Shown here: piece by piece, positions 2,303-51,970 of the stretch
Layout: each line of letters starts with the position of its first letter
Numbering within the stretch: position 1 is the stretch's first letter
From: a virus
Lineage: Duplodnaviria > Heunggongvirae > Uroviricota > Caudoviricetes
Direction: 5' to 3' (one strand)
IMG/VR virus record: IMGVR_UViG_3300029842_000004
Length of the DNA stretch: 64,000 nucleotides
Notes under the pieces: model-generated
Told to the model about the DNA's origin: nothing
What the model saw: only the letters and a program-made list of their open reading frames with translations
The model's database searches: none
Position numbers and translations under genes: made by a program

Positions 2303-3112
2303 ATGATATTAAAAACGACAACCAACGAGTTTTGTTTCATTAACGTAAGTTTCTATGAAACAATAGCAGATCCTCGATATTTCTTTGAACAGGATTATGA
2401 AGAGATGCCAGAATATGAGGAGGAATCGGATTTTGATTTTGATTCTTATTACAATAAGTTTATTCCTTTTGTACAGGAATGGGCGAATGAGGTAAGTGAA
2501 CGCCTTTACGGATATGGCGTGAATAGTATAAAGGTAACATCGGTCGGATATCCAAAAGATCACAATTATGGTACTGATTGGATGGATGTAAGGGTAGAGT
2601 TTTGTGATGAATGGAGGAAAAAGATGTTATCTAACATTGGTAAGATTGTTAATGATGATAAATGCAAGAAGTGTGCGGAGGCTAATTATCGGTCGGTATC
2701 AGGATACATCTTTTTAGGGCCTGAAGATTTAAAGGAATTTGAAAAGAAAATAATAGAAAGAAAGTCAGATTCGGGATATGATGTAACAATATTATTAAAT
2801 ATGTATCTAACTTTGGCTTTTGTAAAAGAATTTGGATTTAAAGCCGGAGAAGCATGGAGTGAAATAACAGAATATGCTTACGGATGTTTGTCGTATTCCG
2901 ATTTTGCAACAACAGAGATGCTTATACCAGAAGGTTCGGAGCATTTATTCAAAGACATTTACACGGCAAAGGCCGACGAATTATATCATCATGTCCTGGA
3001 TAAATTCAGATGGGCGTGGCGTGATCCGAAATATAAGTCAGAAACAGAATTATGCGCGATGCTAAAGTGGGCAAAAGAAAAAGGCTTGACCATTGAAGAG
3101 TTAAGTATTTAA
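2303..3112 (+). CDS. hypothetical protein (269 aa)
   Basis: Long ORF in AT-rich DNA. Confidence 0.65.
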   Translation: MILKTTTNEFCFINVSFYETIADPRYFFEQDYEEMPEYEEESDFDFDSYYNKFIPFVQEWANEVSERLYGYGVNSIKVTSVGYPKDHNYGTDWMDVRVEFCDEWRKKMLSNIGKIVNDDKCKKCAEANYRSVSGYIFLGPEDLKEFEKKIIERKSDSGYDVTILLNMYLTLAFVKEFGFKAGEAWSEITEYAYGCLSYSDFATTEMLIPEGSEHLFKDIYTAKADELYHHVLDKFRWAWRDPKYKSETELCAMLKWAKEKGLTIEELSI

Positions 3113-3698: not shown

Positions 3699-4032
3699 TT
3701 TAACCTTTTACGGGCGCTTTTGCAGCCTTATCGAAGATGATAGAAAGATAATACTAAGGGCGATAAAAAACGGTCGTAAGAAGGGCGTAATTGGAGCCAT
3801 TCAGCCTGGGAGACATGATAGAATTTGGACCACATGGTCTATTGCTTTTGATGATTTGAAGGTAGGGGATACGGTAGAGTTCAGTACATCTGGAAAATAC
3901 AATCCCGGATTTCATGCTACGGAAAAGTATGTAGGGTGTGTAGAATGGATAAAAGGATCGGAATGTGCGATAAAAACCGGCAATGGAATGGCGGTAGTAT
4001 TAATTAAACACATAGAAGGGGTAGTAAAATGA
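3649..4032 (+). CDS. hypothetical protein (127 aa)
   Basis: ORF. ATGA overlap with the next gene. Confidence 0.55.
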   Translation: MNRITKIREEIGEKQVDLTFYGRFCSLIEDDRKIILRAIKNGRKKGVIGAIQPGRHDRIWTTWSIAFDDLKVGDTVEFSTSGKYNPGFHATEKYVGCVEWIKGSECAIKTGNGMAVVLIKHIEGVVK

Positions 4033-4313
4033 TGGGGTTGAGAGAATTTGTAGAACTTTTTGACAAGAATGAAGTAAAGAATTTGTTTAATGCATTGTCT
4101 TCATGTATAGAATACGTAAGGATAGATTTGCATGTATTTAATATAGGTGCTCATGTTGCGTGTCTGTACAGTAATGATCCTGAATTGCTTTCACAGGCAG
4201 AAGGTTGTAATGTGAATATGATAATAGAGGTACCCTACTTGTTTGAAGCATTTATGGAATACGCTTCACCGGAACTGAAAGCTTATTATGATGAACTAAC
4301 AAAAGAAGTATGA
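4029..4313 (+). CDS. hypothetical protein (94 aa)
   Basis: ORF, translationally coupled. Confidence 0.55.
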   Translation: MMGLREFVELFDKNEVKNLFNALSSCIEYVRIDLHVFNIGAHVACLYSNDPELLSQAEGCNVNMIIEVPYLFEAFMEYASPELKAYYDELTKEV

Positions 4314-4783
4314 AAGAGGAAGTAGAACGGATAAAGAAGTTGGTTGGCATAGATCATAACAGATGGGAGCAACCTTGTACATGTGATAAATGTAAAAACA
4401 TGTGTAAAGTTCCTTGTATTGGTACGCCAAAAGACATAGAGGCTATCATAGATGCCGGATACGCTGACAGGTTAAAAGAAACAATGTGGATGGTAGGGTA
4501 TCTTGCAGTGAAAGAAAAACCAATAGCGATGATCCAGCCAACAGAGAAAGACGGGTGGTGCGCATTCCGCCAGCCGGGCGGTCTCTGCGAGCTGCATGAC
4601 CTCGGACTAAAGCCGACTGAAGGAGTTCTGGCTTCTTGTAAGGTGGTTGAAGAAGACGATATTCCGACATACGAAACATCCGTACTTAGAGCAGTAGCTT
4701 ACGAGTGGGTTAAGGTGGAGAACTTTGGAAATGTAATGAAGGTCGTTTTTAAATTTTTGCATGAAAATGAACGTAGAAGATAA
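4310..4783 (+). CDS. hypothetical Cys-rich protein (157 aa)
   Basis: ORF. CTCDKCKNMCKVPC motif. Confidence 0.6.
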   Translation: MKEEVERIKKLVGIDHNRWEQPCTCDKCKNMCKVPCIGTPKDIEAIIDAGYADRLKETMWMVGYLAVKEKPIAMIQPTEKDGWCAFRQPGGLCELHDLGLKPTEGVLASCKVVEEDDIPTYETSVLRAVAYEWVKVENFGNVMKVVFKFLHENERRR

Positions 4784-7480: not shown

Positions 7481-7966
7481 ATGTTTGACGACCTACTGTA
7501 TTATGAAGACCCGTATGATTGTGACCAAGACATTTGTCTTAGCGATTTGCATGGCAAATTATTGTTTCGCTATATCAATAATAATATTATGCCGTATATC
7601 ACAAAAGGCAGGTATTATTCCAAGGGCAAATATGTAGATGGCAAATACCAATATAAAGACAGACATAGTAAAATATTGCTGGAGAATAACAACTGTCCTT
7701 TAACCGGAGTATGCTACGACCAAGATATTTTAGATCCGATTATCCGATATTACAAGACATGGAACAGTTATCCGGAAGATTTTTCTTGGCCGGATTTGAT
7801 GAGACAATGTTATGACAATTTCTTTAAGAGTTGGCATGAAGAATATGAATATTGGGCTGACGATGAGAGTGCGTTACGAGAGGAATTGCATAACAATCAA
7901 TATGAAGACCGCCTTTATTATAAAAATGGAGACGTATATGTTGGACAATTAAACGAAATAGCATGA
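7481..7966 (+). CDS. hypothetical protein (161 aa)
   Basis: ORF. Confidence 0.55.
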   Translation: MFDDLLYYEDPYDCDQDICLSDLHGKLLFRYINNNIMPYITKGRYYSKGKYVDGKYQYKDRHSKILLENNNCPLTGVCYDQDILDPIIRYYKTWNSYPEDFSWPDLMRQCYDNFFKSWHEEYEYWADDESALREELHNNQYEDRLYYKNGDVYVGQLNEIA

Positions 7967-8355
7967 AAACACAAAAAGAATATGCCTATAAGATTGGTGA
8001 AATCGTTCTCAGGGATGTAGAAAGCTGCCAGAGTGACTGGTTCCTTATTGATCAGGAAATATTTATGCTTCCTGAAAACCGGAACAAGGCATTTATTTTG
8101 GGAACCCGGAAGACCGGATGTGATTTAATAATACTGGGTGGCACTAATTGTGATGAAGGTAGTATGGATTGGCTTTTTGGGAGTCTTGGCAATGAAAATT
8201 TCTATATATGTCAGCCGTTATCTTTCTATAAATCACAACGAGAAATCCAGAAAGTAAATCCGCTTTATGCTTTCAAGGTGGCCACTGCTTATTTTGGAGA
8301 ACAAGGGAAGGTTCCGGTATTTGAAGATAGTAACTGTAGATTAATAAAACTATGA
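7963..8355 (+). CDS. hypothetical protein (130 aa)
   Basis: ORF, ATGA coupling. Confidence 0.55.
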   Translation: MKTQKEYAYKIGEIVLRDVESCQSDWFLIDQEIFMLPENRNKAFILGTRKTGCDLIILGGTNCDEGSMDWLFGSLGNENFYICQPLSFYKSQREIQKVNPLYAFKVATAYFGEQGKVPVFEDSNCRLIKL

Positions 8356-9732: not shown

Positions 9733-9990
9733 ATGGAAAATTCAATTATTGTTCCGTTTGATTTAAATACGGCGAGAAAAATTAAAAGCGGAGAAATAGA
9801 AGGTTCGGTATTAATTGATAATATTGAAATAGAATTTGTATATGAGTCGAAAGACTGTGCAGGTCCTTATAATTTGCTTTTTGTAAAAAAAAGATGGATA
9901 TGGGATAAGTGCTATATATGCCAACACGGAAGGTTGTACTATTGGCGGCACCACTCTGGAATTGAAAGTAGAGGCTGGAGCGTATTTTAA
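9733..9990 (+). CDS. hypothetical protein (85 aa), paralog of 10476..10920
   Basis: N-terminal IPFDL.TA.KIK...EIVYE similarity to the frameshifted downstream gene. Confidence 0.55.
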   Translation: MENSIIVPFDLNTARKIKSGEIEGSVLIDNIEIEFVYESKDCAGPYNLLFVKKRWIWDKCYICQHGRLYYWRHHSGIESRGWSVF

Positions 9991-10471
9991 GAAAGGAGAT
10001 GTATTAACAAGCACTAATGGATATCAATTCATATATGATGGAATTATTACCAAAGGGATAATGGGATGTATATGCGGAATGGCATCATTTGGAGATATTG
10101 GGTTTGATTACAAATTATGGACTGATGTGTATGACGAATATAGAAAACGGCATGTAAGAAAGGCTATAGAGGAAGAGAAGAAATTTTTAGCAGAAAAGAT
10201 TATAAAAGCCGAAGACAGTAGAAAAACAGATATAATAAAACGATATTTAAGTGAATATGAGTATCTATTAGATGAGATGCCGAAACGCGACTTCAAACCA
10301 TTTGAACGAGTGCTGGTGAGAAGAACTAACCAAGAGAGGTGGAAATTGCATTTATTTTCCAGAGAATCAGTAGGAGATAATAAATACGAATGCTTAGGAG
10401 GGGTAGGATTTAGTCAATGTATCCCATACGAAGGCAACAAACATCTTTTAGGAACTAATAAAAACAAATAA
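9962..10471 (+). CDS. hypothetical protein (169 aa)
   Basis: ORF. Confidence 0.55.
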   Translation: MKVEAGAYFKKGDVLTSTNGYQFIYDGIITKGIMGCICGMASFGDIGFDYKLWTDVYDEYRKRHVRKAIEEEKKFLAEKIIKAEDSRKTDIIKRYLSEYEYLLDEMPKRDFKPFERVLVRRTNQERWKLHLFSRESVGDNKYECLGGVGFSQCIPYEGNKHLLGTNKNK

Positions 10472-10475
10472 GATT

Positions 10476-10920
10476 ATGGAATATAAAATGGTAACAATCC
10501 CGTTTGATTTAGAAACGGCGAAAAAAAATAAACATAGGGGAAAGAGTAGGTCAGATTGTGACAGAGAAAGGACGAAATAGAGCAGAAATCGTATATGAAG
10601 ACAATTCGTCAATTTGTCCGTTATTGGTTGTAATTCATTCTATTTCTGTATCGGCAGATTGGTTTTCTGCTACAGGAAAAGCATTTAGCAGCGAAAATCG
10701 CCTCCTTCTTGAAGTCCCGGAATATACTACATTTAAAGATGGAGATGTGTTAAGCAACAAAGATGGAAGTTATATTTTTATTTTAAATATGCATGGGAAA
10801 TATTTAACATCTTTGTATGCGAGTCTTGCAGCGGGAACAAGTCTTAATATATTGGATGATTTGGCTGCACACGAAAACCACATAGAATGTTATAGACTTG
10901 CAACAGATTCGGAAAAATAG
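10476..10920 (+). pseudogene. Paralog of 9733..9990 interrupted by a +1 frameshift in an A8 run (10521-10528), or an assembly indel
   Basis: ATG 10476 frame (MEYKMVTIPFDLETAKKNKH) joins the 10558 frame (AEIVYEDN...) if A8 is read as A7. The joined product aligns with the 9733 protein. Confidence 0.5.
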
Positions 10921-11009
10921 AAGATGATTATTTTCCATTCTCATCTGCAAGTATAGTAGCATACGAGTACAAACTACTCTATCATGAGAAATTCTTCGAA
11001 CATCTTCAT

Positions 11010-11195
11010 ATGAAGAGACTGGTTATTGACGAGAATATCCCTTTTCCGGCAAGTACATGGGAGCGCTCATATCGGTATAAAGGATATGGTTACAATATGT
11101 GCCGGGAGACAAAGAAAAAACTTCTACAGGCTATTAAAGGTATAAACGTAGAGGAGGAAGATGTATCTTTGTACACTACTGGAGGATGGAATTAA
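11010..11195 (+). CDS. hypothetical protein (61 aa)
   Basis: ORF. Confidence 0.4.
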   Translation: MKRLVIDENIPFPASTWERSYRYKGYGYNMCRETKKKLLQAIKGINVEEEDVSLYTTGGWN

Positions 11196-11213
11196 CTTAT
11201 AAAACATAGATAT

Positions 11214-11876
11214 ATGAATACATCATTTGAGAAATCTAAAAACAGTACAGATGAATGGTACACACCTAAAGAAATTATAGACGCTTTAGGGGAATTTGAT
11301 TTAGATCCATGTGCGCCTATGCGTCCGTTATGGAGGACAGCCAGGGTTATGTATAACAAAGAGCAAGATGGATTAAAACAAAAATGGGAAGGAAGGGTAT
11401 GGTTAAACCCACCTTATTCAAGACCGACTATAGAGCATTTTATTACTCGTATGGTAGAGCACAATAATGGAATAGCTCTTCTTTTTAATCGTCTTGACAA
11501 TAAGATGTTTCAGGATGTTGTATTCCCGAAAGCAAAAGGTATATTGTTCATGAAAGGAAGGATAAAATTCCACAGAGAAGATGGAACAATAGGTGAAAGT
11601 CCAGGATGTGGGTCTATTCTGGTTGCATTCGGCGAAGAGAATGCGGAAACATTAAGATCTTCTAATATTGAAGGAAGATATATACAGGTCAATCAAGAAC
11701 CGTGTAACACCCATGTAGATTGGGAACAACGTAGATACGAGATAGCAAAAACCATACTTCCTATCACATCCGTATCAGGACGTGGACCTCACGGTGAATT
11801 AATATTGGAAGCGTGTGATAAGGCGGCTGAATTAGCTGTAATATATGCGGATGCTTTAATTAAAGAACTGAAATGA
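11214..11876 (+). CDS. dam: phage-type DNA N6-adenine methyltransferase (Dam_N6 family)
   Basis: DEWYTPKEI, DLDPCAP and NPPYS motifs characteristic of the phage Dam family. Confidence 0.85.
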   Translation: MNTSFEKSKNSTDEWYTPKEIIDALGEFDLDPCAPMRPLWRTARVMYNKEQDGLKQKWEGRVWLNPPYSRPTIEHFITRMVEHNNGIALLFNRLDNKMFQDVVFPKAKGILFMKGRIKFHREDGTIGESPGCGSILVAFGEENAETLRSSNIEGRYIQVNQEPCNTHVDWEQRRYEIAKTILPITSVSGRGPHGELILEACDKAAELAVIYADALIKELK

Positions 11877-12254
11877 AATCAACAGTATATGCTCATCTTG
11901 AGAATGATTATAGATTTTATAGACTTCCTCTATTTAGAGCTACGGCTGTAAAATACGGATGGAATAATCCTATAGGGGAAGATAGTGGGAGAGAGAAAAA
12001 AATATAATTCACAGTATTAAGTAGATATATTATGAGCACAAGTAAAGAATACAAGGCGGTAAGAAACTGCATACTAAATGAACTTCACCTTACCAAATAA
12101 GATATAATCAAAAACATAGAACCATTATTGGAAAAGCTTGTAAAAAGGTGCATGCATAATACATACGGAGGAAACAATCAGATAGAAAATTGGATCAGAT
12201 GTATGGTAAATGACGAACTTAAACAAAAAGAAGGCTATGGTTTTGTAAGGAAAA

Positions 12255-12872
12255 TATGTGGGGGGGGTTATAAAAGATCATGTGTTGAATGAGTTGAACA
12301 TAATTGTAAGACCAAAAAATGAAAGATGCGTATGTGAAAATAGAGTACCATCAAGAAAAGATGGTTTGTATCTAATCTACGGAAACGGACACGCTGAGCC
12401 GTTTGCTGGAGAGAATTTCAAAAAGAATGTGCGTTATATCGGATTAAAGCACAAAGACGTATCGTTTGCTATCTCACTGACGGAGCATGATAGCGTACAA
12501 TTGCTTGACGATGATAGCCGTGAAAAATCCGGAAGTGAGACATATTACGAACGTAAATGTGATGCGCTGTTTGACATTGACGGACGCGGCAATACGGAAC
12601 GCCTTGTGGCCAGAAATCCAAAGTTGAAAAATTTGCTGAAAGATGGCGAGTATATACCATCTCTTGGTCAATTAAATTTAATGGCCCATTATATGGACGA
12701 ACTAAACAAAGCATTCGCTTATGTTTCGGCATCTCCCCTCTCCTCGACGTGGTATAGATCCAGTACCGAGAGCAGCCCGAGCGTCGCGTGGTACGTGGAC
12801 TTCTCCATTGGTAGCGCGTACTACAGTAACAAGTACAACAGTAGCAGGGTTCGGGCGGTAATTGATTTTTAA
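12255..12872 (+). CDS. hypothetical protein (about 205 aa) with a G8 tract in codons 2-4
   Basis: ATG at 12255 in frame with track ORF 12258..12872. ATG GTG GGG GGG GTT. GC-rich codon island near the 3' end. Confidence 0.55.
   Translation, partial: YVGGVIKDHVLNELNIIVRPKNERCVCENRVPSRKDGLYLIYGNGHAEPFAGENFKKNVRYIGLKHKDVSFAISLTEHDSVQLLDDDSREKSGSETYYERKCDALFDIDGRGNTERLVARNPKLKNLLKDGEYIPSLGQLNLMAHYMDELNKAFAYVSASPLSSTWYRSSTESSPSVAWYVDFSIGSAYYSNKYNSSRVRAVIDF
12260..12267 (+). repeat. poly-G (G8) homopolymer at the 5' end of a CDS
   Basis: Read directly. G/C runs this long are rare in this AT-rich window. Confidence 0.9.
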
Positions 12873-12883
12873 AAAGGATTACA

Positions 12884-13690
12884 ATGATAACATCGGTAAA
12901 AATAAAAGACAACACAAAAACTCCTTTTGAATATGCTTCTGACATAGAAGCATTTGAAAATGGCAGAGAATTTATTTTCAAGCCAGGAGTGAACGTAATT
13001 ATAGGTAAAAACGGTAGTGGAAAATCAACCTTGCTTAACATCATATCAATGTATGCGTTATGTGAGAAATCCATGTGCTCTGAAATACCGATCGAGGCAC
13101 TGGATTTTCCACCTATATTTGATGATGATGATGATGATGACAAGGTTCTTGATGGGATTGACATATCATCCGATTATGCAGGGAAAGTATTCCGTTTATT
13201 GCCATCGGCGGAGATGAATCGAGATAGTGTATTAAAAAACATCAGCAACTTAGATTTGTATGTGAATAATATTCGAAGATCTTATGGAGAGAAAGTGGTA
13301 TTATCATTGGAATCACTTTTCAATTTAATGTTCGGTCAAAAGGATTATACATTTCCAATACAAGATCTTGTAGAATACAAGAAAAAATCAAATGCGTTTT
13401 GGATTAAAAGAATTGATAACCTGTTGAAGTATTATGAAAGAAACCGCATAACATTAACAGAAAGCAGTTTTGAATACACGGTTCTCATGGATGAGCCAGA
13501 TAGGAATCTTGACATTGACAACATAATGCAAATTTATAATGTATTGTCATTCCATAAACCACAAACACAAATTATAGCCATAGTACACAATCCGGCATTG
13601 ATTTACAAGTTAAGCAAATTAGATTGTGTGAATTTCATAGAGATGACAGAAGGGTATCTTAATAAAACTTGTACATTTGTGTCCAATTGA
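12884..13690 (+). CDS. minimal ABC-type (AAA_21/SMC-like) ATPase, 268 aa
   Basis: Walker A GKNGSGKST. Signature-like SYGEKVVLSL. Walker B/D-loop VLMDEPDRNLD. H-loop IAIVHNP. Acidic DDDDDDD insert. Confidence 0.75.
   Translation: MITSVKIKDNTKTPFEYASDIEAFENGREFIFKPGVNVIIGKNGSGKSTLLNIISMYALCEKSMCSEIPIEALDFPPIFDDDDDDDKVLDGIDISSDYAGKVFRLLPSAEMNRDSVLKNISNLDLYVNNIRRSYGEKVVLSLESLFNLMFGQKDYTFPIQDLVEYKKKSNAFWIKRIDNLLKYYERNRITLTESSFEYTVLMDEPDRNLDIDNIMQIYNVLSFHKPQTQIIAIVHNPALIYKLSKLDCVNFIEMTEGYLNKTCTFVSN
13121..13141 (+). repeat. (GAT)6GAC trinucleotide microsatellite encoding Asp7
   Basis: gatgatgatgatgatgatgac inside the ATPase CDS. Confidence 0.9.
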
Positions 13691-14407
13691 TCAAGGCATT
13701 TATATGTCATTTTAACACATTTTTTATAAATCAATTAATTATTCATTTTTAAGTTACAGTCATGAAAACATTAAAAGAAAAAGACAAACAATCTTTTTAG
13801 CAAGAAAAGAAGAAGTTTATTCCTTAATAATGGAAATGGGATCATTATTGGCAGATTATGATCATCAATGGTCTAATGAACTAAGAAGAAAATTTGAAAG
13901 AGCTACTTCTTTTCTTTCCTCTATGAATTAGAATATTTTCTATCATCGGGGAACTTGTTGGTAGGATTATAGAATACAAAGTAAAACAACTTATTGCAAT
14001 GGCTTATTTCATATTAATGGGAAGAAGAATCCCCAAACAAGCTATAACAGGCTTCAAATTTCAAAATGAAACAGATAACATTCGTCCTTTTCTGTCAATC
14101 AGGATAAGGGGAAAGGACGAAATTATACCTTTCAAAGATAAAAAAGGAGATACAGTCCGTAAAAGCGCATCTGTGTTCTATCTTCTCCGGATTTGTAAAA
14201 ATAGGCGACTGGTATCTCAAGATGTCGGAAGTTAAGGAATATAAGCCGGTGACCGCCAAAGACATGAACCCCTACATCTTGTTTAAGACATCTAAGTTCG
14301 GAAACATAAAAGTTCGTTTCCCGAAAGATGAAGATATGGATGCAGAATTATTGGTGTTAGATCAACTTTTTGATGTAGAATGAATTATTGATCATATTTT
14401 AGAAATC

Positions 14408-14659
14408 ATGACCTGGAAAGAATTAAAAGACAAAATATCCCTTATGACAGAAGAAGAGCAACGACAAGAAGTTGCAGTCTGGGGAGAAAATATGAATCTA
14501 ATGAAAGATTGTTCCTTGGAGAAAACAGACGAGGATTTGTACTATAATACTGAATGGGATTATACTTGTGAAGAGAGCGAATTGGAGCCGGAAGACAAGA
14601 ATGACCCTGATGCACATAAGGTATATGAAGCAGGCATGCATTATATTTATTCAAATTGA
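14408..14659 (+). CDS. hypothetical acidic protein (83 aa)
   Basis: ORF. Confidence 0.5.
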   Translation: MTWKELKDKISLMTEEEQRQEVAVWGENMNLMKDCSLEKTDEDLYYNTEWDYTCEESELEPEDKNDPDAHKVYEAGMHYIYSN

Positions 14660-14677
14660 TTTTAAAAAGATCTGATT

Positions 14678-15253
14678 ATGGCAGCATTAACAACACTAAA
14701 TATAACGGAAAAGAACGCTAATAACAGTTTGTCTGTAACTGTTAAAGTGAATGTCACCAAAGAAGGAGTGTTTACCACTACCTTGTCAAAAGAAGATGTG
14801 GATAAGATTCATTCTTATGGGATCAAATTACCTACAAACAGATTAGGCAACGAAGGATATTTCAATAGTATAGCACTTTCTGATTTGGAAAGTCAAATCA
14901 GGGAAGTTCTGAAGAGATGTTTGAGTTATAAAATAGTAGAAGAAGTGCCTGTTATTAAGTATCAACTGGAAACGAATTGCCTGTTTTCATATGACAAAAA
15001 CGGAAATATTGTCCCTAACCCCTCTAAGGAATGGACAGGAGGCGATGAAAATGGAAAATGGAGGGATGGAACTTCCCGTTTAGATGCCTTAAACACCCAA
15101 CCTTTCGGTTTTAGTGTTTATGCAAAACCATTTCTAAAAAGAGTAATTGAATATGGAAATGGAGAGACAAAAGTAGAATACAGCAGGTTAAATACAGAAA
15201 AAAGGAACCTATGCGCACTGGCTGAATTGTGTAACGAGCATATCATACAATAG
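14678..15253 (+). CDS. hypothetical protein (191 aa)
   Basis: ORF. Confidence 0.6.
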   Translation: MAALTTLNITEKNANNSLSVTVKVNVTKEGVFTTTLSKEDVDKIHSYGIKLPTNRLGNEGYFNSIALSDLESQIREVLKRCLSYKIVEEVPVIKYQLETNCLFSYDKNGNIVPNPSKEWTGGDENGKWRDGTSRLDALNTQPFGFSVYAKPFLKRVIEYGNGETKVEYSRLNTEKRNLCALAELCNEHIIQ

Positions 15254-15869
15254 ACATAAACAGGTAATGGAAGTGGAGTGTAACGAATGTACCTCGAAAT
15301 TATTCGTTGATATGATCAAGTCCATTTGTAATATAAGCGAACAAGTTAAGAGTTTTGTCAATCCAGAACAAATAAAAGCAATTGCGGAGTCAAATGAACC
15401 GATTTTGCTTTTATCTAACAACTAAAAAATCATGAGGTATGTATGTGTTTTTATCTGCTTTCTGTTATGGCTTATTTTTACATTGTTATTATCATCAACT
15501 GTCATAGGATTGGTTATAAGCGTGAGTGATGAATGGCAGGAAATGGGTGACAAAATAATAGATAAACTTTAATAAAATATGAATAAGAATATAATCAACA
15601 ACGCTCAACTTTTAGAGATTAAAACTAAGATTAGACAACTTGGGACAATGATGAATGCATATCAATGCAGGTTTGTGGTTTCTTCGGGTCAATTGTTTTT
15701 TTGTGGATGATGAATATGCTGGAACGGTTAAACTGACTAATCTTGATAATGGAGAATCTAACATATCATTCCCTTCATGTGACGATGGATTGATAATCAA
15801 TCCAGCCGATAAGCATATTAAATAATTTCAAAACTAAAAATATTTAAATTAATTAAACAATAATAAGAC

Positions 15870-36013: not shown

Positions 36014-36022
36014 CCCCCCCCC
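36014..36022 (-). repeat. poly-G (G9 on the coding strand) in the 5' leader of 35347..36000
   Basis: C9 on plus strand. Minus-strand context gtataGGGGGGGGGtgttatgtaaacaATG. Confidence 0.9.
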
Positions 36023-36089: not shown

Positions 36090-36800
36090 TCATAAAATTA
36101 ATTCAGTAAAAGGACGGACATAATGATAACTACCCCTTGAACCTGTATCCAAATGATCTCCTTGGATGTTTATATCATAATACCACGAATAGGAAAATTT
36201 TGTATTTCGAGTGGATGTCCACATTCTATTACTCATTATCGTACCTCCTACCATTAAAAGGCATTCGTTTATTTCATTCGCATACAATGATATCAAAAAA
36301 AACTCTCCGGCGCCACCTACATATCCATTTTGACCATTTTTAAATAAATAGCTATTAGCTTTATTAAAAGCGTAATCTGTATTACTGGTATCATATTCAA
36401 GATACGCATTCTGATTTTCACGCCCCCAATAATCCTTTTTAATAGTTCCCATATGAGAACTATCTTGTGCAAATATATTGTCTATTTGTCCATCCTTACC
36501 CCAACGAAATGTGCCAATATATTCGGTGGCTATAACAAAACACACTTTATCTACAAGAGCTATTCCATTGCATAGATCATTGGAATATCCTTTATTAGAC
36601 CAATTTTCTTTTGTATATAATCCTCCATCTACATGTTGGATGTATATGCCTTTATTGATTATAAGCGAGGGATTTACCCCCCCCCCATCCCTATTCGAAA
36701 TCTTCGTCTCATGATTTTTTGTTTGCAAGATAGCAATAATTGACAACATAAAAGAAACCGGTTCCCTATCATCTCTGACTGAGAACCGGTAAGAAAACAA
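36090..36800 (-). CDS. hypothetical protein with N-terminal hydrophobic anchor (236 aa), containing an in-frame poly-G10
   Basis: N-terminal FMLSIIAILQ. The G10 tract encodes DGGGV about 40 codons into the ORF. Confidence 0.55.
   Translation of the reverse strand: MFSYRFSVRDDREPVSFMLSIIAILQTKNHETKISNRDGGGVNPSLIINKGIYIQHVDGGLYTKENWSNKGYSNDLCNGIALVDKVCFVIATEYIGTFRWGKDGQIDNIFAQDSSHMGTIKKDYWGRENQNAYLEYDTSNTDYAFNKANSYLFKNGQNGYVGGAGEFFLISLYANEINECLLMVGGTIMSNRMWTSTRNTKFSYSWYYDINIQGDHLDTGSRGSYHYVRPFTELIL
36677..36686 (-). repeat. poly-G (G10 on the coding strand) inside the CDS
   Basis: C10 on plus strand, read directly. Confidence 0.9.
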
Positions 36801-46208: not shown

Positions 46209-46674
46209 ATAGAATACTTTTTCAACAAAAGTACGACATTCATGAATTAATTAGATTTAAAATAAAACAATATGAATTAAAATAAAAACCCGATACGTTA
46301 AAATCGCATCGGGCCTGGTATTGAAAAAAATAGGTTCAGATCTTGGGTAAAGATTCGAGCCAATTTTTAACATCTTTATATTTAGGGTCTTTGTCTATTC
46401 TATCTTTCAGTTCATGCAATGCTGAGTCCATAACCGTATTCGGTACGCCAATCAACTCTCCTATTAAATACAATGGGGTTTTATTCGATTTAGATTCGTG
46501 TGCTATATTCATGTCAAAAAAAAGTTATGTGAAACAAACCGGCCACGGGTATTCTATTGCCCGCCGACCGGTATAATATTTTTATTCCTTTTTTCCAAAC
46601 GGGAAAAACGGGAATGCGGGAATCATATTTTTTACTATGGCTCCCGCACCACCGGAAGGACCTGGATCTGGATC

Positions 46675-51387: not shown

Positions 51388-51970
51388 TTATGAAACTTCT
51401 ATTTCATAATGCGAGGCCTCTGTTTCAACTATCAATCTTCCCTCTCCTTCGAACTCAACACTGTCATTTCCCGGACCAGTAACAAAAGGGAAATCAGATA
51501 CGGATGTTACATAATCTCCAGAACCACCAGAAAAAGACTGACTTTTACTTTGTTTGTAATTGATAGTCAATTGTGTTTTACCTGGCTGAAGAGTTCCAGA
51601 TAAATTTTTAGTATAAGTGGTGGTAGTCGTAATATTCCCATTTTTATAGCAATACATTATAAAAGTAGTAACCGGACTCTTTTTAATATTACTATCTGGA
51701 CCTTCATGATAAGATTCATTTCCTCCAAATATGCTACTAATATGACAATAAGGACCAACTCTTTTATTTGAAGTTTTAGCCTTATTCTCTACTCCCTTCA
51801 AAGATATAGTAACCTTGCTCTTGTATTCAATATCCCTCCAGTTGCAAACTCCTTCACTTACGTTTCCAACAAATCTGTCATCAACATAAACCTCTATATC
51901 CCCCCCCCTGCTGATTGGTCTTCAACTGGTAAGAAACAAGACTTGAGGTATCTTCGTATCTCCTTCTCAT
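51388..51970 (-). pseudogene. gene interrupted by a poly-G9 tract: ATG 51970 ORF stops shortly after the tract; G8 (or G11) would give about 193 aa continuous with the 137-aa ORF 51388..51801
   Basis: Manual translation. ATG AGA AGG...CAG CAG GGG GGG GGA TAT AGA GGT TTA TGT TGA with G9. With G8 the frame runs into MKGVENKAKT... The track ORF begins at TTG. Confidence 0.5.
51900..51908 (-). repeat. poly-G (G9 on the coding strand) at the gene-interrupting position
   Basis: C9 on plus strand, read directly. Confidence 0.9.

Follow-up and report, generated by a model that had tools for sequence, protein, structure and literature searches.

The early region of a gut-phage genome contains a small ABC-type ATPase gene immediately preceded by a reading frame that opens on a run of eight guanosines, and the locus raises the question of whether these two genes act as a unit or are independent neighbours. 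The window analysed here, which is the whole 64,000-nt stretch of DNA, is assigned by sequence comparison to an Epsilon crAss-like gut phage, the closest record being crAssE-Sib (OR575929; described in PMC11054128), with 92% nucleotide identity. A preliminary description had regarded the genes as a two-gene module of ATPase and effector. The reading preferred here, with a probability of roughly 0.65 for the account as a whole, is that they are two independent early genes, adjacent in a segment of mosaic, accessory character that immediately precedes the replication module: a conserved solo ABC ATPase, and a lectin-fold gene with an apparently orphaned DGR-type region, overlaid by lesions private to this sequence. 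The features of the locus are listed in Table 1.

Table 1. Features of the ATPase/lectin-fold locus, in window coordinates.
Feature	Position	Strand	Supporting observation
Dam-type N6-adenine methyltransferase gene, orphan	11214..11876	+	Pfam Dam, E 7e-15; PADLOC orphan MTase
Gene for 278-aa early protein, disrupted in the window: helical N-terminal region and C-terminal Lcl_C/C-type-lectin-fold domain	12032..12872	+	
In-frame TAA in the 278-aa gene	12098..12100	+	relatives GAA (82) or GAG (1)
204-aa ORF, GTG start, whole lectin-fold domain included	12258..12872	+	Lcl_C; phrog_4245
G8 tract, +1 frameshift in the 278-aa gene	12260..12267	+	absent from 83 distinct relatives
DGR-type variable region, last ~35 codons of the lectin gene	12753..12848	+	entropy peak, multi-allelic sites
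Conserved GC-rich 3′ end of the variable region, GTTCGGGCGGTAATTGATTTTTAA	12849..12872	+	nearly invariant in 84 sequences
Stand-alone ABC-type ATPase, 268 aa, 30.8 kDa, pI 4.8	12884..13690	+	
(GAT)6GAC microsatellite encoding Asp7	13121..13141	+	TRF period 3, 7.0 copies, 100% matches
56-aa gene broken by T5 (13794-13798); T6 in relatives	13762..13931	+	indel vs L127, L126, L133
127-aa gene broken by A6 (14140-14145); A5 in relatives	13999..14383	+	

The ATPase carries a Walker A sequence, GKNGSGKST (aa 41-49, nt 13004-13030), a signature-like motif, SYGEK (aa 133-137), a joined Walker B and D-loop, VLMDEPDRNLD (aa 200-210), and an H-loop, IVHNP (aa 233-237). All catalytic positions were invariant in 25 homologues with identities down to 52%, including Gly41, Gly44, Gly46, and Lys47 of Walker A, the C-loop Ser133-x-Gly135-Glu136-Lys/Arg, and Leu201-Met-Asp203-Glu204-Pro-Asp-Arg-Asn-Leu-Asp210 together with His235. 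The C-loop, which is followed by a helix (residues 134-150) in the AF2 model, is an SMC/AAA_21-like variant rather than LSGGQ. The Q-loop region between Walker A and the signature has no invariant glutamine, its conserved residues being Asp97 and Tyr98. The whole chain adopts the ABC fold, with a helical subdomain of only ~80 aa in the AF2 model, and the enzyme is predicted to be catalytically complete. Pfam AAA_21 (PF13304) matched in two stretches with 40.2 bits, against a gathering cut-off of 27, and AAA_23 was also above its cut-off. The NCBIfam scores were all far below the family cut-offs. The complete motif set, the AAA_21-type assignment, and the lack of a transporter partner that had been read from the sequence at first were thus confirmed, as no permease or transmembrane-domain gene lies next to the ATPase in the window. 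The latter distinguishes it from the NBDs of ABC transporters, and its single NBD sets it apart from ABC-F proteins, which have tandem NBDs and a linker. Like other ABC ATPases, it would probably form a head-to-tail homodimer that closes around two ATP molecules.

The ATPase gene was found to be widespread and syntenic, contrary to its first portrayal as a sporadic moron. Copies with 91-100% identity were present in no fewer than 236 IMG/VR contigs; in the more distant 152-kb relatives the gene is 69% identical and occupies a syntenic position. It evolves under purifying selection (pN/pS 0.135). Homologues also occur in unrelated gut phages, in siphovirus-like, 96-kb, 190-kb, and prophage contexts, with different neighbours each time. 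Members of the family are 264-271 aa long, one 90%-identity cluster alone contains 3,391 sequences, and a PHROG search returned no PHROG for the family. Homology to a core replication or packaging protein in a conserved syntenic position had been named as evidence that would count against a defence role; the synteny is indeed conserved, but the ATPase was not homologous to any known protein of replication or packaging.

The description of the region as accessory was supported by the mosaic gene architectures that surround the locus among relatives. The Dam-type gene directly upstream of the lectin-fold gene is swapped for an unrelated 145-aa gene in some relatives, and the slot just upstream of the ATPase is occupied in the 152-kb relatives by Tad3 (4e-34), with a small DUF2400-like ORF in between. 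Replication genes lie downstream of the ATPase in the window, DUF4494 and primase genes in the 152-kb relatives. Across nine genomic contexts, no conserved partner of the ATPase was detected and none of the neighbours was a nuclease; BLASTP of the upstream and downstream neighbours from five lineages revealed no similarity among them. Genomes in which the lectin gene is deleted (L121/L124) or missing (L163) retain the ATPase, and lectin-family genes occur without the ATPase in L205, L293, and Bacuni_F1. The two genes are separated by 12 nt in the window and are adjacent in most genomes of this phage genus, given which a lineage-specific functional link between them might still exist; co-occurrence counts are biased, since the loci were gathered via the ATPase or via the variable region.

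Other open reading frames near the ATPase were also considered. A 73-aa ORF that overlaps the ATPase start in crAssE-Sib is part of a ~330-bp repeated element, and was rejected as a partner. The 269-aa ORF at 2303-3112, located after a further copy of the element, was rejected as a paralogue of the ATPase. In one siphovirus-like lineage only, the ATPase is followed by a 65-aa hydrophobic ORF that probably spans the membrane.

The protein encoded upstream had been introduced as a 205-aa protein of unknown function with the G8 tract at its start. The reading frame and the tract exist, but the frame encodes 204 aa from a GTG start, and represents the 3′ three-quarters of a 278-aa gene (ATG at 12032), intact copies of which are present in all 83 distinct relatives; a 239-aa form, starting from an ATG at 12152, is found in close relatives (P0121, 144 member sequences). 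The C-terminal 170 residues of the 278-aa protein have an Lcl_C/C-type-lectin fold. Pfam Lcl_C matched residues 158-201 of the 204-aa ORF with an E-value of 5e-5, below the gathering score, and phrog_4245 matched with an E-value of 1.6e-8. Domains of this family span ~170 aa within phage proteins of 210-260 aa, and are encoded in the early or replication modules of four unrelated phage groups. None of the family sequences has an N-terminal signal-peptide-like hydrophobic stretch.

The end of the lectin gene is composed of hypervariable codons placed between invariant scaffold codons. At 11 hypervariable positions, 54 of the 61 distinct codons end in C, compared with 15-18% elsewhere, and A is among the alleles of nearly all multi-allelic sites. 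The pN/pS of the segment is 1.17, compared with 0.34 for the rest of the gene, and its GC content is 52%, compared with ~33% nearby. A C-type-lectin-fold domain with a C-terminal variable region is the arrangement of a DGR target, and the codon pattern agrees, indirectly, with the DGR signature of AAC-derived NNC codons. The variable segment would thus have been written by DGR mutagenic retrohoming, and the last 35 residues of the protein would form a variable binding surface. The GTTCGGGCGGTAATTGATTTTTAA segment lies where an IMH would lie, and may serve as one, judging by position only; neither the window, nor the whole Sib genome, nor any of the other loci scanned contains a second copy of it.

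The cognate template repeat was sought at several scales. The best ungapped match was only 29/50 in the window and 31/50 in the rebuilt whole Sib genome, while the same scan recovered the Bacuni TR, used as a positive control, at 43/50. A scan of L205 was negative, as were searches within ±8 kb in 105 relative loci and by blastn against 50,697 phage records. Scans of GTDB genomes (species representatives), IMG/VR, and JGI metagenomes for the predicted TR/VR scaffolds, which required exact matches to the predicted TR, were also negative. Genome pairs with less than 1% flank divergence differ at only 0-3 of 96 nt in the variable region, whereas ongoing diversification would make that region differ between otherwise identical genomes. 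The variable region looks orphaned and not currently diversifying; since no cognate template repeat is detectable now, its variants would be inherited and recombined rather than regenerated. A template could exist in incompletely read genomes, or in a host outside the species representatives.

Two known DGR systems are informative for comparison. Bacuni_F1_00026 (DUF1566, “fimbrial tip-like”) is 35.6% identical to the lectin-fold protein over the 170-aa domain, and is likewise a small protein of a replication or early module with its variable region in the last ~35 codons. One remote DGR target was reported for the Bacuni phage, with an ORF numbering that differs from the GenBank tags (PMC8143477); Bacuni_F1_00026, the 3′ end of which matches the Bacuni TR at 43/50, is most likely that target, the identification being made across the two numberings. 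The lectin-fold protein and the Bacuni remote target share the same structural match, BACOVA_04982 (PMC8143477). However, the Bacuni F1, F2, and F4 phages carry a cognate TR, Avd, and RT, whereas no TR matched here and close genomes share identical variable regions. CrAssE-Sib has a DGR cassette consisting of an RBP target, a TR, and an RT (PMC11054128), and belongs to the same phage genus, so that DGR machinery is present in the lineage. Its TR (Sib 46215-46310), which lies outside the window, shows no similarity to the variable region described here. The second lectin-fold gene is not mentioned in the crAssE-Sib description (PMC11054128). Epsilon crAss-like phages therefore appear to carry a second DGR-type variable protein in the early region, for which no template was found and which the published account of the group leaves out.

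The G8 tract, the TAA codon, and the broken 700 bp downstream are lesions private to this sequence. The relatives closest to the window read TGTGGGGAGGTT at the G8 site, with GGGGAGG in frame, encoding ICGEV; G8 is the only G run of six or more on the given strand of the window. The phase variation once proposed for this tract is not supported, as the tract is absent from all 83 distinct relatives. The stretch from 13691 to 14407, which contains no ORF longer than 78 aa, had been called gene-poor and decayed. It is disrupted here, but its two genes are intact in relatives, and each is broken by one single-base homopolymer change: the peptide of the 56-aa frame, restored by hand, was found in relatives by tblastn, and the 127-aa gene is intact in crAssE-Sib (L001, 8965-9348), L121, and L163. 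The apparent “switch”, “effector”, and “decayed island” are thus features of this one sequence and not of the phage group, which removes a false lead.

One possibility is that these lesions are uncorrected sequencing or assembly errors, and that the genes of the phage are truly intact, as in its relatives; the chance of this is put at a little under even. Between 10912 and 15582, where the window is 99% identical to three independent relatives, most indels are single-base differences, both +1 and -1, at or beside short homopolymers, the remainder being 3-6 nt in the GAT repeat and one 4-nt difference in L126. Other small genes are split in the same way (A8 compared with A7 at 9885, and C9 compared with TCCCC/CCCCC at 51900), and the growth of a 5-nt run by four residues is hard to explain by natural slippage. 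However, the placement of the lesions is not random: in the 4.7-kb early region, 4 of the 36 runs of at least 5 nt differ, whereas four large ORFs with 89 such runs contain no frameshift (P ~3e-5, assuming equal rates). This pattern is consistent with genuine mutations that have passed through selection, or with a record that was curated selectively. The replacement of GAA by TAA is, moreover, a substitution rather than a homopolymer error. No relatives of the C10 tract at 36677 were recovered by pattern search, and Rfam gave no match in the window or in L001.

The function of the ATPase admits other readings. It was suggested by SMC_N, the top Pfam match (39.6 bits, just under the cut-off of 40), by the AAA_23 match, and by the presence of Rad50, SMC, and RecF among the profile matches that the protein might be a replication, recombination, or repair accessory, acting as a minimal RecF/Rad50-head-like, ATP-dependent DNA clamp for the adjacent replication module. 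The strong conservation of the gene, and its location upstream of replication genes here and downstream of SSB in the siphovirus-like phages, would suit this role. This clamp reading is considered unlikely. Unlike the Rad50, SMC, and RecF clamps, the phage ATPase has no coiled-coil or DNA-binding insertion between its N- and C-terminal ATPase halves, and no nuclease or kleisin partner is encoded nearby.

A relationship of the ATPase to those of defence systems is indicated by PADLOC matches to mad3 (2e-17) and AriA (3e-12), the best stretches of which cover ~45 positions of profiles 253-709 positions long, at the P-loop and Walker B ends only. The defence ABC ATPases (PtuA of Septu and retrons, AriA of PARIS, GajA of Gabija, and AbiLi; AAA_21/AAA_15) are ~375-700 aa in length, and the shorter phage-encoded protein is without their insertion, dimerisation, or coiled-coil domains. 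In contrast to Septu, Gabija, PARIS, and AbiL, no HNH or TOPRIM nuclease or other effector is adjacent in any of the nine contexts. No defence-effector model matched the neighbours of the ATPase in the window, where PADLOC reported only orphan-methyltransferase models for the Dam gene and weak Cas5 matches for 9962-10468. Only host systems emerged from a search of the literature for stand-alone phage ABC ATPases with a role against defence. The ATPase probably has a host or phage molecule as its target, and would act without an effector dedicated to it in the phage genome. In terms of neighbourhood only, the setting of the gene is more suggestive of host takeover or counter-defence than of abortive infection, because of the orphan Dam methylase here and the anti-Thoeris gene Tad3 that occupies the corresponding slot in relatives.

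Tad3 is a phage inhibitor of Thoeris ThsB (PF25185; PMC13402655), and works by binding a host protein. Like the lectin-fold gene, it encodes a small early protein, but the two have no sequence or fold similarity, and a functional analogy between them is speculation from position only. A broader and quite improbable proposal, drawn from position only, is that the early-module lectin-fold proteins of Bacteroidales phages (this gene, Bacuni_F1_00026, L205, and L293) are intracellular hypervariable binders that neutralise host defence, rather than adhesins. DGRs would then diversify, now or in the past, counter-defence specificity, and the solo ABC ATPase would be a second factor of the hotspot, possibly a decoy or poison subunit against host ABC-ATPase immunity. 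This proposal was put forward because of the missing signal-peptide-like stretch, the placement in early or replication modules of four unrelated groups, and the occurrence of Tad3 in the slot. Least probable of all is that the two genes form an abortive-infection or superinfection-exclusion module carried by the phage, with an AAA_21 sensor, a small effector, and G8 slippage as a switch: the sequence matches are confined to two ends of the defence profiles, the upstream protein is a lectin-fold binder without a PADLOC match rather than a nuclease or membrane effector, no partner is conserved and the ATPase is found in genomes that lack the lectin gene, every distinct relative lacks the G tract, and the ATPase shows conservation and synteny instead of a sporadic distribution.

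With the two genes read as independent neighbours, the ATPase defines a family of minimal, stand-alone ABC ATPases that is abundant and conserved in human-gut phages but uncharacterised, and that offers a tractable target for functional work on crAss-like phages. The lectin-fold gene raises the question of which ligands are bound by non-structural variable proteins of this fold, and whether variable regions that have been orphaned are relics or are supplied in trans.

Within the ATPase, the Asp run is an in-frame, slippage-prone coding microsatellite. The expectation that it could vary in length in frame was verified across relatives, most of which have four Asp residues and others five, six, or seven; relatives that are 99% identical differ from the window by -3 and -6 nt. 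The run is situated in a gapped, variable part of the ATPase family alignment.

A single GenBank phage, crAssE-Sib (OR575929, 151 kb, human gut), was found to match region 11000-15500 of the window, with 92% identity. Listed in GenBank as csAssE-Sib, it has been described under the name crAssE-Sib as an Epsilon crAss-like phage, and Epsilonunovirus is the genus proposed for it (PMC11054128). Window 11899-12894 aligned end to end with the intact 278-aa coding sequence of crAssE-Sib, revealing that the ORF upstream of the ATPase, described preliminarily as a 205-aa unknown protein starting with a G8 tract, is a 204-aa truncated view of a 278-aa lectin gene; the G8 tract itself is present. The alignment used throughout comprised window 12000-13700 and the copies of 83 distinct relatives (84 sequences). 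Two lesions of the lectin gene occur only in the window: a TAA codon at 12098, where 82 relatives have GAA and one has GAG, and a +1 frameshift, GGGGGGGG at 12260 compared with GGGGAGG in relatives. The G tract was found in 0 of the 83 relatives and is thus not a conserved switch; the proposed phase variation at G8 is not supported. The 204-aa ORF still encodes the whole C-terminal domain, and a 239-aa form beginning at ATG 12152 is common in close relatives (P0121, 144 member sequences).

The extreme C-terminus of the lectin gene product gave a sub-threshold Pfam match to Lcl_C (DUF1566). Among 1.84 billion cluster representatives searched, 521 relatives were found, mostly of 210-260 aa, with a common C-terminal domain of ~170 aa at 30-48% identity. 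In an AlphaFold model from the relatives' alignment, residues 108-278 have pLDDT >93, and the N-terminal part of ~105 residues is modelled as helices of low confidence. The lectin-fold domain matched the C-terminal part of the Bacteroides ovatus fimbrial tip protein BACOVA_04982 (15.8), the Legionella Lcl C-terminal domain (11.0) and TvpA, a variable protein of a diversity-generating retroelement (DGR) (6.0), with FGE-type domains and C-type lectins lower than TvpA. No signal-peptide-like hydrophobic stretch was found in the N-termini of the family sequences. The paper on the phage group (PMC11054128) makes no mention of this lectin-fold gene.

The 3′ end of the lectin gene forms a variable region (VR), with a GC content of 52% compared with ~33%, that stands out by entropy and by the count of multi-allelic sites. 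The C-terminal tails of 120 cluster representatives come in 59 versions, built on the invariant scaffold W-SSTE-SQ--AW-V-FS-G------K----RVR-VIDF. At 11 hypervariable positions, 54 of the 61 distinct codons are NNC (97% sequence-weighted), whereas a third-base C is found in only 15-18% of codons elsewhere, and A is among the alleles at nearly all multi-allelic VR sites. This pattern is what adenine mutagenesis acting on the AAC codons of a DGR template would yield. The pN/pS ratio is 1.17 in the VR, compared with 0.34 in the remainder of the gene. The nearest homologue among cultured phages is Bacuni_F1_00026 (35.6% identity), a 224-aa DUF1566 protein encoded between PolA and methylase/primase genes in Bacteroides uniformis phages. 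These phages are reported to have two DGR targets, one of which is remote from the RT/TR/Avd core (PMC8143477). Bacuni_F1_00026 is most likely this remote target, since no other DUF1566 gene lies away from the core and the 3′ end of 00026 corresponds to the template repeat (TR); the ORF numbers of the paper differ from the GenBank locus tags. In L205, a locus from a temperate-type phage, the lectin-family protein is only 48% identical to that of the window; both VRs are GC-rich, and L205 8500-8640 and window 12750-12860 have long exact nucleotide stretches in common, such as AGTACCGAGAGCAGCC and GCGTGGT.CGTG. This nucleotide conservation exceeds what the protein identity would lead one to expect, as if the two VRs had descended from related templates.

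The lectin gene belongs to a known class, that of DGR targets, as a variant for which no template was detected. As a positive control, an ungapped scan with the 3′ end of Bacuni_F1_00026 recovered the Bacuni TR (43/50) and the second VR (45/50). The same scan returned nothing over background in the window (best 29/50) or in the complete rebuilt crAssE-Sib genome (best 31/50), and no TR rose over background within ±8 kb of the locus in 105 relatives (best 36/60). Blastn against 50,697 phage records returned the VR itself and no TR; a second copy of the conserved 3′ anchor GTTCGGGCGGT was present in none of 287 sequences, and exact-match scans of GTDB genomes, IMG/VR and JGI metagenomes gave no match for the predicted TR or scaffold. 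The DGR of crAssE-Sib itself, at 45.7-47.8 kb (RBP VR, TR and RT), has a TR unrelated to the lectin-gene VR. VR divergence follows flank divergence, and genome pairs with <1% flank divergence differ at 0-3 of 96 VR positions. We take the VR to be an orphan that is not being diversified over the time scale sampled, the scans for its TR having covered the part of its own phage genome that lies in the window.

Features of the locus and of the sequences compared with it (window nucleotides unless stated)
Feature	Position	Detail
Dam-type orphan N6-adenine methyltransferase	11214-11876	directly upstream of lectin gene
Lectin gene	12032-12872 (+)	278 aa, disrupted
Upstream ORF		204 aa, GTG start
G8 tract	12260-12267	
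VR	12753-12848	last ~35 codons of lectin gene
ATPase ORF	12884-13690 (+)	268 aa
Walker A	aa 41-49	ATPase
S-x-G-E signature	aa 133-137	ATPase
Walker B/D-loop	aa 200-210	ATPase
H-loop	aa 233-237	ATPase
Asp7 tract	13121-13141	(GAT)6GAC, in ATPase
Single-base homopolymer changes	12260 (+G), 13793 (-T), 14140 (+A), 15198 (+A)	vs relatives' loci L127/L126/L133
Further changes	15696 (+T); 9885, 10521 (+A)	+A changes vs one or more of L127/L126/L133
Poly-C runs	51900-51908 (C9), 36014-36022 (C9), 36677-36686 (C10)	poly-G on coding minus strand
~300-bp repeat	1978-2274	non-coding; also crAssE-Sib locus L001 7515-7865, crAssE-Sib 65335-65460

The ATPase ORF and the full motif set attributed to it were located, and its catalytic positions showed no variation across 25 homologues with identity down to 52%. 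In Pfam, AAA_21 (40.2 bits) and AAA_23 (34.3) exceeded their cut-offs (27 each), and SMC_N fell slightly short (39.6 against 40). The top PADLOC matches (mad3, AriA, PtuA, GajA and AbiLi) covered only the two ends of far longer profiles. No family was found in PHROGs. At least 236 IMG/VR contigs encode homologues at 91-100% identity; the family comprises 640 matches of 264-271 aa, with 3,391 sequences in one 90% cluster, and is under strong constraint (pN/pS = 0.135). It is a new and uncharacterised family within a known superfamily. In-frame variation of the GAT tract, suspected previously, is real, since the number of Asp codons among relatives is 4 (most), 5, 6 or 7, and three relatives with 99% identity to the window across 4.7 kb show a difference of -3 or -6 nt precisely at the tract, a gapped and variable position in the family alignment.

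By analogy with established ABC ATPases, the protein would work through ATP-driven head-to-tail dimerisation. Its neighbourhood suggests an accessory role in host takeover or counter-defence, because an orphan Dam methylase lies here and Tad3 occupies the same slot in relatives: in loci L208-L210, from 152-kb relatives, the stretch 3963-4736 upstream of the ATPase, syntenic with window ~12000-12870, holds a Tad3-family gene (Pfam 4e-34) along with a small DUF2400-like ORF. Tad3 inhibits ThsB of type I Thoeris (PMC13402655). The ATPase of these 152-kb relatives is 69% identical and occupies the equivalent position, ahead of DUF4494, the replication factor and the primase; its ORF has 391 aa, with a C-terminal extension of ~125 aa. 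A function as a replication or repair clamp is a serious rival to the host-takeover or counter-defence role.

The 700 bp 3′ of the ATPase contain no ORF >78 aa, as expected of the gene-poor, decayed region described preliminarily, but two genes of relatives are broken there by single-base changes. Repair restores a 127-aa gene present in relatives, and with T6 put back at 13794 a 56-aa frame (read by hand) opens, also present in relatives. Compared with L127, L126 and L133 (99% identity over 10912-15582), indels of the window are mostly single-base and in or beside short homopolymer runs; the remainder are GAT repeat differences of 3-6 nt and one 4-nt difference in L126. The C9 run at 51900 is also private to the window (relatives, TCCCC 54 and CCCCC 13), and shifts the frame of a gene that lies just downstream of a 2135-aa ORF and has a 192-aa annotation in crAssE-Sib. 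These changes could be sequencing errors. However, among runs of at least 5, 4 of 36 are affected in the early region and 0 of 89 in four large ORFs (p ~3e-5 at equal rates), and this non-random placement therefore speaks for genuine mutations on which selection has acted as a filter, or for selective curation of the record. Whether mutation or error, the lesions are private to the window sequence. The other two poly-C runs had no crAssE-Sib match or IMG/VR pattern match. An A8 at 9885, compared with A7 in L133, splits a small early gene; the 85-aa (9733-9990) and 169-aa (9962-10471) ORFs of the window are a single 245-aa ORF in locus L163. The 169-aa fragment (9962-10468) gave weak PADLOC Cas5 matches (best E 7e-5, 20.9 bits), which are probably spurious.

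The lectin gene and the ATPase are not a unit, and we regard their independence as established. In other phages, the ATPase is preceded by a pair of radical-SAM genes, by small unrelated ORFs close to SSB and antirepressor genes, or by a gene for either a 262-aa or a ProQ-like protein, and BLASTP detected no similarity among its neighbours across five lineages. Within the genus, loci L121 and L124 encode an ATPase 100% identical to that of the window, also with Asp7, and their lectin gene is cut to a VR remnant of ~120 nt (7867-7989, window 12750-12872), comprising the VR and 3′ end with no upstream in-frame ORF, which was left by deletion or replacement. In L163 the nucleotidyltransferase gene is missing, as are those for the methylase and the lectin-fold protein. 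In about a dozen relatives, an insert of ~330 bp separates the lectin gene from the ATPase. Conversely, L205, L293 and Bacuni_F1 carry lectin-family genes without the ATPase, in every case in early or replication modules. The reading of the pair as a defence module of ATPase and effector is weak, as ATPase neighbours differ by lineage and each gene is found without the other. The segment around the ATPase is mosaic. The position of the Dam methylase is held by an unrelated 145-aa gene in crAssE-Sib and many relatives, an alternation that indicates cassette-like exchange, and the alternative to the 56-aa gene is one of 102 aa.

The lectin-ATPase insert in crAssE-Sib and about a dozen relatives is a copy of the ~300-bp repeat, for which Rfam gave no match. 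The window copy, 87% identical, lies upstream of ORF 2303-3112. A partial 73% copy in crAssE-Sib spans the 3′ end of a TnpB gene and the adjoining downstream region. Possible identities of the repeat are a miniature element of the IS605 type and a portable regulatory cassette.
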